Assembly: GCA_943788635.1 (NCBI GenBank)
Contig: CALSRA010000028.1
Location: forward strand, 38,520-102,519
Source of the DNA: an uncultured Alphaproteobacteria bacterium
GTDB lineage: Bacteria; Pseudomonadota; Alphaproteobacteria; UBA8366; GCA-2717185
Length of the DNA: 64,000 nucleotides
Reading direction: 5' to 3'
Made by a program: the position numbers and the translations under genes. This document shows positions 49,716 to 63,036 of this stretch, piece after piece; position 1 is the stretch's first letter, and each line of letters starts with the position of its first letter. Under the pieces are notes generated by a model. It worked only from the letters and a program-made list of their open reading frames with translations. It made no database searches and had not been told where the DNA came from.

Positions 49716-50381
49716 TTATGTGAAAAGCCGCGCATGAATATGACCGGCGGCGCCGATGCCGGGTTCGACAATAACGTTGAATCCGGCATCGGCGAACGTC
49801 AGGGACTTTTCGCGGTCCCGTGTTCCGTGTCCGCTCAACAGGTGGATACCGCCGGCGAGACCGGCATTCTTCCCGGCTTCGATGTCACTGGCGGAATCAC
49901 CGATAATCCAGGACCTTGCAAGGTCGAGATTCAGGGCTGTCGCGGCATCGTGTATCATGCCGGGTCCCGGCTTGCGCCATGCATGGCCCGCGCGGTCATA
50001 GGGCGGTTTCCCTTCCGCGTGATAGGCGCAGGCGAGCACCATCTCGAAATGCGCATCGGCGGTGGCAAGATGGCGCGACAGGGCTTCCTGAATCGCGGCG
50101 AATTCCGGCCAGCCATAATAGCCCCGCCCGACACCGGACTGGTTCGTGACCAGAATGACGGGAATACGCGAGGCATTGCACAGGCGAATGGTTTCCGCGG
50201 CGCCGGAGAGAACCTCCATATCCTCGATCCGGTGCAGGTAGTTGGTTTCCGCAACGACAACCCCGTCACGGTCCAGAAATATCGCCGGGCGAGGGGTCGC
50301 TGCCGGAGATGCATCAGAATTAATCTGCCGCCACAATCCGGGGCTGCCCGGAACGGTCGATAGCGGATCCGGTTCCCTCAC
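49716..50381 (-). CDS. gmhB: HAD-IIIA phosphatase, D-glycero-D-manno-heptose 1,7-bisphosphate phosphatase (GmhB)-like
   Basis: The motifs FLDRDGVVV, ...VILVTNQSGVGRGYY..., ...RKPGPGMI... and ...IIGDSASDIEAGKNAGL are present. The gene overlaps the upstream GT2 gene by 4 bp. Confidence 0.7.
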   Translation of the reverse strand: MREPDPLSTVPGSPGLWRQINSDASPAATPRPAIFLDRDGVVVAETNYLHRIEDMEVLSGAAETIRLCNASRIPVILVTNQSGVGRGYYGWPEFAAIQEALSRHLATADAHFEMVLACAYHAEGKPPYDRAGHAWRKPGPGMIHDAATALNLDLARSWIIGDSASDIEAGKNAGLAGGIHLLSGHGTRDREKSLTFADAGFNVIVEPGIGAAGHIHARLFT

Positions 50382-51088
50382 GGATTGGACGCGCGCAGTT
50401 GCAGGATTTCAAAGCTGGTCCGCAGCGGTTGGACGCGGTCGGATTCAAACTTGGCCGGCCAGACTTCACGAAGGAGTCCGGACAGGGTCATGCTGGTATC
50501 CGGGGAAATACCAATTGTCTGGAATGCATCGAATGATGCGAGCATGTGTATCGGCCATTGCATCGCCGCAATACGCTGCAGCATTTCATAGGGGCCGCTA
50601 TAGGCGCCCGCGTAATAGGCGCTTTCGTCCAGTCCGCCCGCCGCAATGGCCGATTCGCGGCGCATGAACACGGTGTGTACGGAGTGTTCGTCGACCGTGT
50701 CGCCATAGGGGTTTGCGAGCACGGTGTTTTCATCCGGAGAAGAATCGGCCTGCTGCAGCCACTCTGTCAGTGCGTTATCGGGAAGTTCCGCATCTGCATC
50801 GAAATAGACGACATATTTGCCGCGCGCCATTGTCAGTGCGGTATTGAAGCCGATATTGCGGTTGTACAGGAACTCGTTCTGGCCGTAGACGAAGACGTAG
50901 TCAGCTTTTGCCATCATTTGCGGGCTTTCTCGGTCAAAAGCGTCGCTGCAGATGATTTCGTAGTCCTGGCGGTCCAGCGTCTGGCGCTCGAGATGACGGA
51001 TCAGGCTGTCGTAGCGGGACCCGTTGGTATCGGACAACAGAATGGAAAGCCGCGGCGTCCCCGTCTGTTTGGCGGGTGATTTCCGCAT
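50378..51088 (-). CDS. family 2-like glycosyltransferase
   Basis: The start is at the ATG 51088-51086 (MRKSPAKQTGTPRLSILLSDTNGSRYDSLIRHLERQTLDRQDYEIICSD...). The DxD-type motif is YFDADAEL. The protein is 236 aa. Confidence 0.55.
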   Translation of the reverse strand: MRKSPAKQTGTPRLSILLSDTNGSRYDSLIRHLERQTLDRQDYEIICSDAFDRESPQMMAKADYVFVYGQNEFLYNRNIGFNTALTMARGKYVVYFDADAELPDNALTEWLQQADSSPDENTVLANPYGDTVDEHSVHTVFMRRESAIAAGGLDESAYYAGAYSGPYEMLQRIAAMQWPIHMLASFDAFQTIGISPDTSMTLSGLLREVWPAKFESDRVQPLRTSFEILQLRASNP

Positions 51089-51089
51089 T

Positions 51090-51611
51090 TCATATCCGGT
51101 GTTCGTGGCCAGCGAAAGGCGCTGCATCCGAAATAGGGGCCGTAGCGCAGCCCGATATAGCCTTCGTCGATAACGGTCGGCGCTCCATCTGATGGGCCAG
51201 AGGGGACAGCGTTTTCTCTTCGGGAATTTCGAGGCCGTATTCGTTCTTGATCGCCTGGAGGAGTGTCCAGGCTTCCGGTGCATACAGGATTTCCTGGACG
51301 GCCCGGGACAATACTGGGATTGCGCTGGCTGCGGATTCAGCGTCGGCACGCCGGATCAGTTCCTTCGCATGCCACATACGGTAGGCCGTGAATTCCGGAT
51401 CGAGCGCTGCTGCTTTTTCGAAATGGCCGCTTTCACCGGATATGCGCCCATAATAGTAATGCAGGCTGGCCATGATCAGCGTTTTCAATTCGCCGCGCCT
51501 GTCCGATTGGTCGCGCAGTGCCTCGGTGACAATCTGCAGATAGGTTCGGTAGTTGAAGAAACCCTGGCAATAATCCCAGGTCATGATGTCGTCGAGAGGC
51601 TGGAGCGTCAA
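51090..51611 (-). CDS. hypothetical helical protein in the glycan operon
   Basis: The ORF is 173 aa and tightly packed (TGA-A-ATG to the next gene). Its TTG start overlaps the stop of the upstream gene, and the first ATG is 9 codons in. I did not recognise a family. Confidence 0.35.
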   Translation of the reverse strand: MTLQPLDDIMTWDYCQGFFNYRTYLQIVTEALRDQSDRRGELKTLIMASLHYYYGRISGESGHFEKAAALDPEFTAYRMWHAKELIRRADAESAASAIPVLSRAVQEILYAPEAWTLLQAIKNEYGLEIPEEKTLSPLAHQMERRPLSTKAISGCATAPISDAAPFAGHEHRI

Positions 51612-60768: not shown

Positions 60769-61771
60769 TCATTTGCCGCACGCCGTTTCGGGTATCGCTG
60801 TTTGGGGGCGGCACCGATTTTCCCGCCTGGTACCTCAGCCATGGCGGATCGGTGCTTGGCACCCACCATCAACAAGTATTGCTATCTGACCGTACGGTCC
60901 TTGCCGCCGTTCTTTGAACACCGGCACCGTGTCGTTTATTCCCGCATCGAACTGGTGAAGGAAATCAGCGAAATACAGCATCCGTCCGTGCGGGCGGCGA
61001 TGGGCGAGATGGGCATGGAGCACGGGCTTGAAATTCACCATGACGGCGATTTGCCAGCCCGGTCGGGTCTAGGTTCCAGTTCGTCCTTTACGGTTGGGTT
61101 GCTGAACGTGTTGCATGCGTTTCGCGGCGAAATGGTTTCCGCCAAGGAACTGGCCCGCGAGGCGATCCGAATTGAGCAGGAAGTGATCGGCGAAGCGGTT
61201 GGCTCACAGGATCAGGTCTGGGCTGCCTATGGCGGGTTGAACCGGATCAATTTTTCGCAGGGACGGCTCATTCGATGTGCAGCCGGTGGTCATCGACCCG
61301 GAACGCCGGGAATTGCTGAACGACCATATCATGCTGTTCTTCACCGGGTTTTCCCGAATTGCGGCAAATGTGGAAAAAGAAAAAATTGCCAATGTCGACA
61401 GCCGCAAGACCCAGCTTCGCGCGCTGGGCGCGATGGTCGATGAGGGCATCCAGATACTGCAGAACCGGAATAGCGATATCACGGAAATCGGCGAACTGCT
61501 CAATGAAGCGTGGCGCCTGAAGAAGGAAATGTCGGACAAAGTGTCCACCAGCGCCATCGACGACATCTACGATGCGGCGTTAGACGCGGGTGCACTCGGC
61601 GGCAAACTGCTGGGTGCCGGGGGCGGGGGCTTCCTTTTGTTGTTCGTCGCGCCGGAGAACCAGCCGGCGGTGCGCGAGCGGCTCACGAACCTGACCCACG
61701 TATCGGTAGAGATCGGCAGTCCCGGCAGCCGCATCGTCGTGTACGAGCCGGATGGAACGGGAACGCACTGA
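60765..61771 (+). pseudogene. hddA: GHMP-family sugar kinase (D-glycero-D-manno-heptose 7-phosphate kinase HddA-like), two +1 frameshifts
   Basis: [33 protein letters not shown] joins TINKYCYLTVRSLPPFFEHRHRVVYS...GDLPARSGLGSSSSFTVGLL...INFSQ, which joins DGSFDVQPVVIDPE...GGKLLGAGGGGFLLLF.... The slips are at CCC 60862-60864 and GGG 61260-61262. Confidence 0.7.
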
Positions 61772-61784
61772 GGGACGGGACAGC

Positions 61785-63036
61785 ATGAGCGTGCCTGAAG
61801 CGGTTCACGTCGTCCGGCAGGCGCTTGAAAAAGGAAATATCGGCCGGGCGGATATTTTGAGCCGCCATATGCTGGAAGCGATACCGGATAGCCCCTGGCC
61901 GCCATTGCTGCTTGCCGAGGTCGCGCTGCGGGTGGGGCGACGTTGCGTCGGCCCGTCGCTGGAATGCCGAAGCATCACGGGCGCTCATCCTGCGGGATAA
62001 TGGCTCGTTTCCCGAAGCGGAAGCGGAACTGCGGCGGCTGGACGTTGCACTGGATAAAGCCGTTCCGCCGCTCCGTCAGGGCGGTTTTCTGCTGATCAAA
62101 TGCTGGGGTTACGGCCTGTGGTCCGATGTCGAACATGTGCTGTCATCGTTGCTTCTGGCGGAGATGACGGACCGGGTTCCGATTGTCCATTGGGGCGACA
62201 ACAGTTTCTACATTGACGACGGAACCGATGATGCGTTCGGGTCATTGTTCGAGGCGATAGCGCCGCTGACATTGGCGAAACTGGCCGCTGAAGAGGGGGA
62301 TATCTATCCGCCGAAATATCGCCGGAATAATCTCGACGAGGTTGGGTTGAATATCTGGGATGGGCCGTATTCGCGCCTGTCTGGGCTTTACCTGCTGAAC
62401 CGCCCGGAGCGGATCGTCGTCAGCGATTTCTTTACCCAGGTTGCCGAATTGCTGCCCTGGTTATCCCCCGGACATTGGTTGCACGGAAAACCGGTGCTGA
62501 CGGCCATCCGCCTGCTGCACGAAAAGTATCTGGCCCCCGCGCCGGATATCCGAAACCAGATAGATGGTTTCGTTACTCAACACTTTGAAAGCCGGCCGGT
62601 GCTGGGCGTGCATGTCCGAAACGTGGACAAGGCGCTCGAAGACCCGGCCTTTGCGGAAGAGAACCACGCGATCCCGGCTATGGTTAACAAGCATATGACC
62701 GAAGCCGCGCAGCTACGCTTGTTTCTCATGACGGATTCCGCGCAGGTGATCGAAACCTATAGGGCCCGGTACGGCGAGCGGGTTTTTCATACGGATTGTG
62801 CCCGGGCGAACAATCTCGTGCCGCTGACATGGCGTGACACGGCCGACAGGCGACAGCTTGGCGTCGAGGTTATCCTGGATACCTATATCGCCGCCGCCTG
62901 CGACTATTTCATCGGGCATGGTGGGTCGAATGTCGCCTGCATGGTTGCCTGTTTGAAACAATGGAAACCGGGAACAATTCAATTGATCAGAGACAACATA
63001 AAGACCCGTCGAAACTGGCTGCTACACGATTGGTAG
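61785..63036 (+). pseudogene. N-terminal TPR-like segment fused to a NodZ/fucosyltransferase-like (GT23-type) glycosyltransferase, +1 frameshift
   Basis: MSVPEAVHVVRQALEKGNIGRADILSRHMLEAIPDSPWPPLLLAEVALRVG joins DVASARRWNAEASRALIL... at the G4 run 61934-61937. The C-terminal part ...VLGVHVRNVDK..., ...LFLMTDSAQVIETY... and ...DYFIGHGGSNVACMVA resembles NodZ-type transferases (weak call). Confidence 0.45.

Follow-up and report, generated by a model that had tools for sequence, protein, structure and literature searches.

What kind of sugar would a bacterium make from a guanosine diphosphate (GDP)-heptose activation module, a ColD-type 3-dehydratase, a split thiamine pyrophosphate (TPP, or ThDP) enzyme and a B12-binding (cobalamin) radical S-adenosylmethionine (SAM) enzyme encoded side by side, and is the locus that raises this question still intact? 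The locus, hereafter the island, occupies positions 49716 to 63036 of a 64,000-nucleotide stretch (the window) of contig CALSRA010000028.1 from an uncultured alphaproteobacterium (assembly GCA_943788635.1). We propose, with a probability of roughly 0.55, that the intact cassette starts from GDP-heptose and builds a higher sugar, 3-deoxy and carbon-branched, destined for a surface glycan, and that the copy in this genome is degenerating. The proposed steps differ in their basis: C4 oxidation and 3-deoxygenation are drawn from close homology to assayed enzymes and the three activation steps from weaker homology, while we infer the TPP, radical SAM and transfer steps. The enzyme families are all known; what is new, and widespread, is the combination of Cj1427-type oxidation, ColD-type 3-deoxygenation, a TPP enzyme and a cobalamin radical SAM enzyme. 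A preliminary description of this DNA had suggested a deoxygenated, branched and/or C-methylated heptose; its heptose and 3-deoxy parts are backed by homology and its overall direction was largely right, but the role that it offered for a dehydrogenase, its tentative inclusion of an acetolactate synthase (ALS)-like gene and its count of minus-strand genes were wrong, and it gave too little weight to the probable decay of this copy. Its domain assignments all held, at the coordinates it had given, in Pfam and NCBIfam scans of the listed open reading frames (ORFs) and translations.

The deoxygenation step is assigned to a DegT-fold protein of 389 aa, encoded by an intact ORF at 57903..59072 (+) and dependent on pyridoxal or pyridoxamine phosphate (PLP/PMP). 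Its best match is ColD of E. coli O55 (PDB 2GMS; 5.6e-114, 47% identity over 384 aa). Its segment SFFFSHHIATMEGG aligns with SFYSHHIATMEGG of 2GMS, with His188 aligned in place of the Schiff-base Lys, and it is at this very His column that the H188N mutant entry 3B8X differs. The preliminary description had taken the His-for-Lys replacement as a ColD-type signature, and this assignment stands, given that bona fide aminotransferases match the protein far more remotely (1e-37 or weaker). The iron–sulfur RfbH/E1 type of dehydratase was ruled out as well, at 8e-49 against 5.6e-114 for ColD; the [2Fe-2S] enzyme E1 is also longer, at 437 aa. Judged by its sequence, the island enzyme is a ColD orthologue.

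Its downstream neighbor, an extended short-chain dehydrogenase/reductase (SDR) with an intact ORF at 59081..60025 (+), matches PDB entries 6VO6/6VO8 at 5.6e-110, with 54% identity and no gaps over 308 aa. The 6VO6 chain is a 313-aa Campylobacter jejuni protein, which we take to be Cj1427, the GDP-heptose C4-dehydrogenase reportedly described by Huddleston et al. in 2020. It had been suggested that this SDR might fill the missing 4,6-dehydratase role. We reject that assignment: alongside the YxxxK motif (YGRTK), the protein has TNSGYG, in which no Asp/Glu pair follows the catalytic Ser/Thr, and it is closest to the C. jejuni protein. We take the SDR to be a Cj1427-like GDP-heptose C4-dehydrogenase; an enzyme of that kind would be expected to hold NAD(H) tightly, to regenerate it with alpha-ketoglutarate and to oxidize C4 with no dehydration. 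Because it resembles a C4-dehydrogenase rather than a 4,6-dehydratase, the sugar is more likely to be 3-deoxy with its 6-hydroxyl retained than 3,6-dideoxy. In the proposed route, the SDR would oxidize C4 and the ColD-like enzyme would then take off the 3-hydroxyl, giving GDP-D-glycero-3-deoxy-4-keto-heptose. Together, Cj1427 and a ColD-type C3-dehydratase have been found to turn GDP-heptose into GDP-D-glycero-3-deoxy-4-keto-D-threo-heptose, presented by the Raushel group as a new compound known only in vitro and reported at m/z 616.08 (PMC10680097). The SDR/ColD gene pair implies, as far as homology can, that this type of compound occurs naturally as a pathway intermediate.

A scan of one genome per species retrieved 80 loci with close ColD-like genes (53–89% identity). 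They come from Rhodospirillales, Bradyrhizobium, Xanthobacteraceae, Marinomonas, Colwellia, Thalassotalea, Rheinheimera, Niveibacterium and other Rhodocyclaceae, and also from Acidobacteria, Nitrospirae, Elusimicrobia, Sulfurimonas, Helicobacter, Arcobacter and a Coxiella-like endosymbiont. Co-occurrence was counted in the 51 loci that measure 15 kb or more, using tblastn with at least 35% identity and at least 50% coverage. A Cj1427-like SDR is present in 50 of the 51, followed by a GHMP kinase (38), a radical SAM enzyme of ~497 aa with a B12-binding domain (35), an E1 alpha/beta pair (26), a GDP-fucose-synthase-like enzyme (25) and a split transketolase with separate N and C subunits (17). 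The two TPP enzymes never occur together (0/51), and one or the other is found in 43 loci; all five core functions are encoded in 29. In Campylobacterota and Nitrospirae the genes run nucleotidyltransferase, (HAD phosphatase), GHMP kinase, ColD, SDR, GDP-fucose synthase, transketolase N and C subunits, and radical SAM; in Rhodospirillales the order is E1 alpha, E1 beta, ColD, SDR, radical SAM, nucleotidyltransferase, GHMP kinase and a GT2 glycosyltransferase (GT). As this core order recurs in dozens of genomes, the island is not a chance assembly.

The accessory genes of these loci, which include GmhA-like SIS genes in several cases, Nudix genes and GtrB/ArnC-like GT2 genes, fit a GDP-sugar bound for a surface glycan. 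The GDP theme is strengthened by the Nudix genes, by the GDP-fucose-synthase-like gene (412 bits) and by the NodZ-like transferase of the island. Among cultured strains, plasmids of Azospirillum lipoferum 4B (AZO_p6; L088) and A. argentinense Az39 (p5; L089) carry ColD-like, E1 alpha/beta and SDR genes, next to GT41 (OGT-like) and tetratricopeptide repeat (TPR) proteins, methyltransferases and a WavE-family lipopolysaccharide (LPS) gene; the PGAP names of these plasmid copies are generic. The reduced genome of the Coxiella-like endosymbiont strain 580 (L069) keeps the E1 alpha, E1 beta, ColD-like and nucleotidyltransferase genes, together with a ManC-like gene, and papers on Coxiella LPS make no mention of E1 or ColD-like genes. 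A full-text literature search found no characterized cluster with this gene combination, in agreement with the earlier statement that no such pathway was known. The bradyrhizose pathway was also considered and set aside, its proposed operon being centered on a dTDP-glucose 4,6-dehydratase and hence different.

Upstream of the C4 oxidation, three genes would supply the GDP-heptose. The GHMP kinase gene (60765..61771, +; 334 aa if intact) is a pseudogene in the window, with GHMP_kinases_N and GHMP_kinases_C on separate ORFs and its coding sequence spread over three frames. The nearest structures to its intact orthologue are the heptose kinases 3K85, 4USK/4UT4 and 4N3O (1e-34 to 1e-36), 4USK being presumably WcbL; fucokinase follows at 1e-17 and galactokinase at 1e-15, which answers the concern that the kinase might group with non-heptose kinases. 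The sugar-1-phosphate nucleotidyl(guanylyl)transferase (60018..60768, +; PF00483) finds its nearest solved structure in 5XHW/6JQ8, the 6-deoxy-D-mannoheptose pathway protein of Yersinia pseudotuberculosis (1e-28), with GMPPB next (5e-24). The HAD-IIIA phosphatase (49716..50381, −; 221 aa, ORF intact) exceeds the cutoffs of the domain models TIGR01656 and TIGR01662 (118.9 versus 84, 96.9 versus 44.6), and its nearest structure is 2O2X, followed by E. coli GmhB (2GMW; 2e-24). The nearest solved structures of all three are thus heptose-pathway enzymes, which upholds the GDP-heptose-type activation first proposed. We call the three HddA-, HddC- and GmhB-like, and they would make GDP-heptose from a phosphate supplied by a gmhA elsewhere in the genome.

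A different substrate, in which GDP-mannose passes through GDP-4-keto-6-deoxymannose to ColD as in colitose synthesis and the kinase and phosphatase serve salvage, strikes us as very unlikely. GDP-4-keto-6-deoxymannose is indeed the characterized ColD substrate, the nucleotidyltransferase also resembles mannose-1-phosphate guanylyltransferases, and the A. halopraeferens locus (L005) has ManC. Against such a hexose route, the 64-kb window contains no GMD, the near-invariable partner of ColD is the Cj1427-like C4-dehydrogenase (50/51 loci), GmhA-like SIS genes occur in several loci, and heptose kinases are the best structural relatives of the kinase by 19 orders of magnitude in E-value.

Carbon branching would follow at the 4-ketone. 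The E1 alpha-like subunit (55886..56851, +; 321 aa, intact) matches PF00676 at 8e-56 and shows the GDG-X26-NN TPP motif (GDGATEEG...CENN) in its translation; the longer ORF opening at 55673 has a spurious N-terminal extension, the start at 55886 being set by homology to two close relatives described below (L086 and L087). The E1 beta-like gene (56835..57899, +; 354 aa if intact) is a pseudogene here, with Transket_pyr and Transketolase_C spread across two ORFs; the pair as a whole contains E1_dh, Transket_pyr and Transketolase_C. In the proposed route, this stand-alone pair would decarboxylate pyruvate and put the two-carbon unit on the C4 ketone, to give a 4-C-acetyl or hydroxyethyl C9 skeleton. 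The idea that E1 alpha/beta pairs attach two-carbon branches to keto-sugars, already raised in the preliminary description, has precedent in the E1 alpha/beta-like AviB1/B2 and Pau11/12, which install such branches on 4-keto sugars (PMC4425429). YerE, which acts on a 3,6-dideoxy-4-keto sugar, is a further precedent for two-carbon branching (PMC9306805).

E1 beta is nearest in structure to pyruvate dehydrogenase E1 beta (6e-67), and both subunits score as pyruvate dehydrogenase E1 subunits, as they would if they and the radical SAM gene were unrelated metabolic genes that merely adjoin a heptose operon. We regard that explanation as extremely improbable: inspection of the island and of a set of related loci showed no E2 or E3 partner gene, the E1–ColD adjacency is kept in Alpha-, Beta- and Gammaproteobacteria and in Acidobacteria, and in Campylobacterota and Nitrospirae a split transketolase takes the same operon position. 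That replacement is found in L017, L019-L021, L028, L051-L052, L055-L056, L060-L063 and L072-L084, where a glycolaldehyde unit, instead of a two-carbon unit of the acetyl type, could be the donor.

An ALS/oxalyl-CoA-decarboxylase-like TPP enzyme gene lies just outside the cassette (48044..49700, +) and had been offered, speculatively, as a further island member with a YerE-like role. Its best NCBIfam matches (PRK05858, oxalyl-CoA decarboxylase and 2-hydroxyacyl-CoA lyase) all fall below their cutoffs; it adjoins an enoyl-CoA hydratase gene and is syntenic only in L086 and L087, and elsewhere 4 of 85 loci have just 23–24% matches. With no conserved association with sugar genes and scores of the oxalyl-CoA-decarboxylase/2-hydroxyacyl-CoA-lyase kind, the YerE analogy was rejected; missing from the conserved cassette, the gene is not part of the system.

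The last modification before transfer is assigned to the class-B (B12-binding) radical SAM gene, a pseudogene at 53768..55820 (+; ~683 aa if intact). The window copy has PF02310 (3e-9) and CPFLCTFC, the CxxxCxxC motif, and is cut off just past that motif; PF04055 is seen in the intact orthologue of L002, a metagenome scaffold whose ColD-like protein is 84% identical and which carries the syntenic cluster. The best family for the L002 protein is KedN5 (NF033712; 252 bits, short of the cutoff of 700), named in NCBIfam as C-methyltransferases, and the KedN5-like enzyme would C-methylate an unactivated carbon of the sugar. This type was found only in L002/L003, L086 and L044, with remoter relatives in a few other loci. 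It is absent from L087 (region 7390-7984), has a nonsense mutation of its own in L086 (5867-7918) and carries a stop and a frameshift in the window, and it looks like an accessory enzyme repeatedly lost within this clade. L044 carries both this type and the ~497-aa type, so the two are no substitutes for each other.

The ~497-aa enzyme raises a second chemistry, in which the precursor is still GDP-3-deoxy-4-keto-heptose, but the TPP and radical SAM enzymes do other carbon work on it: either the radical SAM enzyme forms a C–C bond or rearranges the exocyclic C6–C7 part to give a carbocyclic C9 sugar of the caryose type, or the chain is extended linearly at C7. HpnJ and BchE, against which the ~497-aa enzyme scores best, are ring-forming or ring-contracting B12 radical SAM enzymes rather than methylases. 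Caryose, a 4,8-cyclo-3,9-dideoxy-nonose, can be written as a heptose plus a two-carbon unit, with a TPP-made C4–C8 bond and a radical-made C7–C8 bond; both the number of atoms and the deoxy positions of its structure fit, and how it is made is described as unknown (PMC9092360). Across loci, E1 alpha/beta and split transketolase stand in for each other, and one natural fusion, P0281 (1239 aa, from a JGI metagenome), links a B12-binding radical SAM domain with the GT-B/TPR module found N-terminally in the 944-aa transferase family described below, which hints that the radical SAM and transferase functions are coupled. On the other side, the window and L002 lack the 497-aa enzyme and carry the KedN5 type, all radical SAM family scores lie far under their cutoffs, and no locus of Burkholderia/Trinickia caryophylli is among the 80 retrieved. 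We consider this second chemistry unlikely. A bolder version, in which the cassette is a route to carbocyclic or branched C9 higher sugars such as caryose, with the TPP enzyme making the C4–C8 bond and a non-methylating B12 radical SAM enzyme closing or rearranging the skeleton, is quite unlikely in our estimate; if it were true, such sugars would be far commoner than known, in Rhodospirillales, Marinomonas, Colwellia, Nitrospirae, Sulfurimonas, Helicobacter and Acidobacteria.

Several points weigh against the branched, C-methylated 3-deoxyheptose that we prefer. The activation enzymes miss the narrow NCBI equivalog cutoffs: HddA is the best-scoring family for the intact kinase orthologue, at 144.8 bits against 600; the HddC model gives 108.6 bits against 300, and the mannose-1-phosphate guanylyltransferase model scores higher, at 137; and the phosphatase reaches 123 bits against 178 for its best model, the GmhB equivalog, and 84 against 250 for the alpha-specific one. 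For this reason the three are named "-like" and are not proven equivalogs. That 6VO6 is Cj1427 is a probable identification, in keeping with the C. jejuni origin of the chain. The preliminary description had noted that the window has no gmhA, and a homology search of the 64-kb window for gmhA was likewise negative, as were those for GMD, GDP-fucose synthase, RmlC and ManC. The island has no reductase for the branch carbonyl. The usual ~497-aa radical SAM enzyme of the cassette differs from that of the window, its best scores against HpnJ and BchE being below both cutoffs. In many related loci, finally, the TPP enzyme is accompanied by a GDP-fucose-synthase-like 4-reductase that could use up the C4 ketone, so that the TPP acceptor could be another carbonyl.

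Transfer of the finished sugar would fall to two enzymes. On the minus strand, the preliminary description had listed a GT-B protein, a 173-aa protein and a GT2 as separate genes. Intact 944/938-aa homologues from L002, L086 and L087 align over all three ORFs, namely 51608..53227 (539 aa), 51090..51611 (173 aa) and 50378..51349 (323 aa), which rules out three separate genes and makes them fragments of a single one in frames −1/−3/−1 (tblastn). The resulting pseudogene (50378..53227, −) corresponds to a bifunctional glycosyltransferase of ~944 aa, with an N-terminal GT-B, a central TPR and a C-terminal GT-A/GT2 region; in the domain scans its fragments matched Glyco_trans_1_2, TPR (weakly) and GT2. 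Its true start is probably near 53209, where the homologues start; a G>A change at 53226 relative to L086 creates an upstream minus-strand ATG, making the ORF start apparently 6 codons longer. An AlphaFold2 model of the intact 944-aa orthologue (mean predicted local distance difference test score 91, predicted TM-score 0.92) retrieved, in Foldseek, GT4-type GT-B enzymes (BshA, MshA, PglA) and the TPR-bearing protein glycosyltransferases OGT/SdgB for the N-terminal half, and GT-A/GT2 enzymes for the C-terminus. The family is rare, with 64 matches at E < 1e-10 among 5.8 billion proteins, none of them functionally named. L002 encodes two tandem paralogues (938 and 936 aa; 35-5658), and the window, L086 and L087 one each.

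The second enzyme is encoded by a pseudogene at 61785..63036 (+; 416 aa if intact) that combines TPR with a GT23 (NodZ/FUT8-like) domain, matching PF05830 (1e-9; 38 bits against a cutoff of 28.3), PF19745 (1e-7; 31.7 against 27.6) and the NodZ structure 2HHC (5e-6). The GT23 family uses GDP-fucose, with which a GDP-linked donor is consistent. The two transferases would pass the GDP-sugar to an acceptor that the TPR modules hint, speculatively, might be a protein.

The two divergent gene sets are separated by exactly the 540 bp first reported (53228..53767, the radical SAM ATG following at 53768). A promoter and terminator scan of this spacer gave one sigma-70-like match on the plus strand, not above shuffled sequences, and Rfam had no match anywhere in the window. 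No flippase, polymerase or ABC exporter gene occurs in the island. About 20 kb upstream, at 29420-30739 and 32368-33885, lie a Wzy_C/O-antigen-ligase-like membrane protein with DUF5935 and a Mu-transposase-like ORF.

Is the island, then, still working in this organism? Besides the more distant L002, two relatives carry the syntenic cluster: L086, a scaffold 99.7% identical to the window, which keeps nearly all island genes intact, and L087, an alphaproteobacterial metagenome-assembled genome from NCBI, which is without the radical SAM gene altogether. Lesions were mapped by base-by-base comparison with L086 over 16 kb, where 36 substitutions and 14 single-base indels were found, and by tblastn of the relatives' proteins on the window. 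Six genes are broken, as had been reported, but out of a total of 11 rather than about twelve. The 944-aa transferase gene has three 1-bp deletions relative to L086 (51129, 51176, 51616). The radical SAM gene has TAC>TAG at 54400, right after the Fe–S motif, and a frameshift at 55614, and the E1 beta gene has CAG>TAG at 57228, a stop that recurs in Logan contig L001 (100% identity across 3.8 kb). In the nucleotidyltransferase gene, a +1 insertion at 60705 swaps the last ~21 residues and fuses the frame to the kinase N-terminus, by which alone the ORF reaches 60917. Further +1 insertions lie at 60862 and 61260 in the kinase gene and at 61934 in the NodZ-like gene.

Genes still open are also altered. 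In the ColD-like enzyme of the window, Asp replaces Gly367, which is invariant in 74 of 74 orthologues and shared by E. coli ColD; the SDR carries S165N and N278I at conserved columns of the orthologue alignment, and the phosphatase has three nonsynonymous differences from L086. The substitutions relative to L086 (9 synonymous, 22 nonsynonymous, 4 nonsense) come near neutral expectation, and the radical SAM and ALS-like genes of L086 bear nonsense mutations of their own, distinct from those of the window.

These lesions could instead be consensus errors of the assembly, with a working, undamaged island in the organism itself. Of the 14 indels, 11 insert one base, in nearly every case lengthening a short homopolymer, a pattern that fits consensus errors too and so counts against gene decay. 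Damage also extends beyond the island: the ALS-like gene is frameshifted at 48400, and hisI (PRA-CH; +1 at 63189 and 63395) and a Cys/Met-metabolism PLP gene (+1 at 63573 and 63957), both in 63041-64000 (−) and both intact in L086, are hit as well, which would be odd for selective loss of a glycan pathway. We nonetheless doubt this explanation. Two of the lesions are nonsense substitutions, one of them repeated in an independent Logan assembly; substitutions relative to L086 follow a near-neutral spectrum, and two of the affected genes carry nonsense mutations in L086 as well; ORFs that remain open have lost invariant residues. Nor are the errors uniform, since the first ~46 kb of the same window consist of long intact ORFs (gltA, gltX, comEC, lexA, moeA, trpD, trpG and ECH among others). 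The boundary is sharp: ~46 kb of intact housekeeping-type ORFs give way to ~17 kb (47000-64000) in which nearly every gene is broken. We conclude that this copy of the island is probably undergoing genuine, ongoing gene loss. With six of 11 genes broken and open ORFs substituted at conserved sites, the pathway in this genome is most likely dead, and the window offers a snapshot of pathway loss beside a 99.7%-identical relative that still has the pathway genes.

Beyond this genome, the combination is conserved over many phyla, including relatives of pathogens and plant-associated Azospirillum. From the proposed cassette one would expect GDP-3-deoxy-4-keto-D-glycero-heptose, made only in the test tube to date, to be a common intermediate in nature, and branched or carbocyclic C9 sugars to be widespread as surface antigens. 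It would also supply candidate genes for sugars of unexplained biosynthesis, caryose included, and offer new C–C bond-forming biocatalysts acting on nucleotide sugars.

Among known systems, the capsular GDP-heptose pathway of C. jejuni (HddA/GmhB/HddC, Cj1427 and the HS:5 C3-dehydratase) shares with the island the kinds of activation enzyme, the SDR (54% identical to the 6VO6 protein) and a ColD-type 3-dehydratase, and the predicted island intermediate is the in vitro product of Cj1427 and the HS:5 dehydratase (PMC10680097). Yet the C. jejuni 3-dehydratase naturally follows a 4,6-dehydratase, leading to 3,6-dideoxyheptoses, and its pairing with Cj1427 was artificial; that pathway is also without a TPP enzyme or a B12 radical SAM enzyme and ends with epimerases and 4-reductases, which the window lacks. 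The colitose pathway (GMD, ColD and ColC in E. coli O55 and Y. pseudotuberculosis) has in common a ColD orthologue and a GDP-linked substrate, with a ColC/GDP-fucose-synthase-like enzyme in many related loci, whereas the island has no GMD, probably uses a heptose that keeps its 6-hydroxyl, and adds C–C bond-forming enzymes.

For the branching step, yersiniose (YerE/YerF) and eurekanate/paulomycose (AviB1/AviB2, Pau11/Pau12) offer the closest parallel in kind, a 3-deoxy-4-keto nucleotide sugar being the natural acceptor of the TPP-bound two-carbon unit. YerE differs as a single-chain, ALS-like flavoenzyme that acts on a cytidine diphosphate-hexose. AviB1/B2 and Pau11/12 are stand-alone E1 alpha/beta pairs like that of the island, a likeness by type and not by sequence comparison, but they serve antibiotic synthesis in actinomycetes and are said to act once the glycosyl group has been transferred, unlike the Gram-negative surface-glycan loci with GDP-heptose to which the island belongs. 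Class-B radical SAM enzymes that act on sugars or alkoxy groups (the KedN5 family and GenK, and HpnJ/BchE for the 497-aa type) share the N-terminal B12-binding domain and the CxxxCxxC core; relative to the KedN5 family, the island type scores only 252/700, and the gene is inactivated in the window and L086 and absent in L087. Caryose, from the LPS of Burkholderia/Trinickia caryophylli, is a C9, 3-deoxy sugar with a terminal methyl, as would be expected, on a purely structural argument, from a 3-deoxy-4-keto-heptose, a pyruvate-derived two-carbon unit and one radical closure, although the window lacks the radical SAM type that would be the candidate cyclase.

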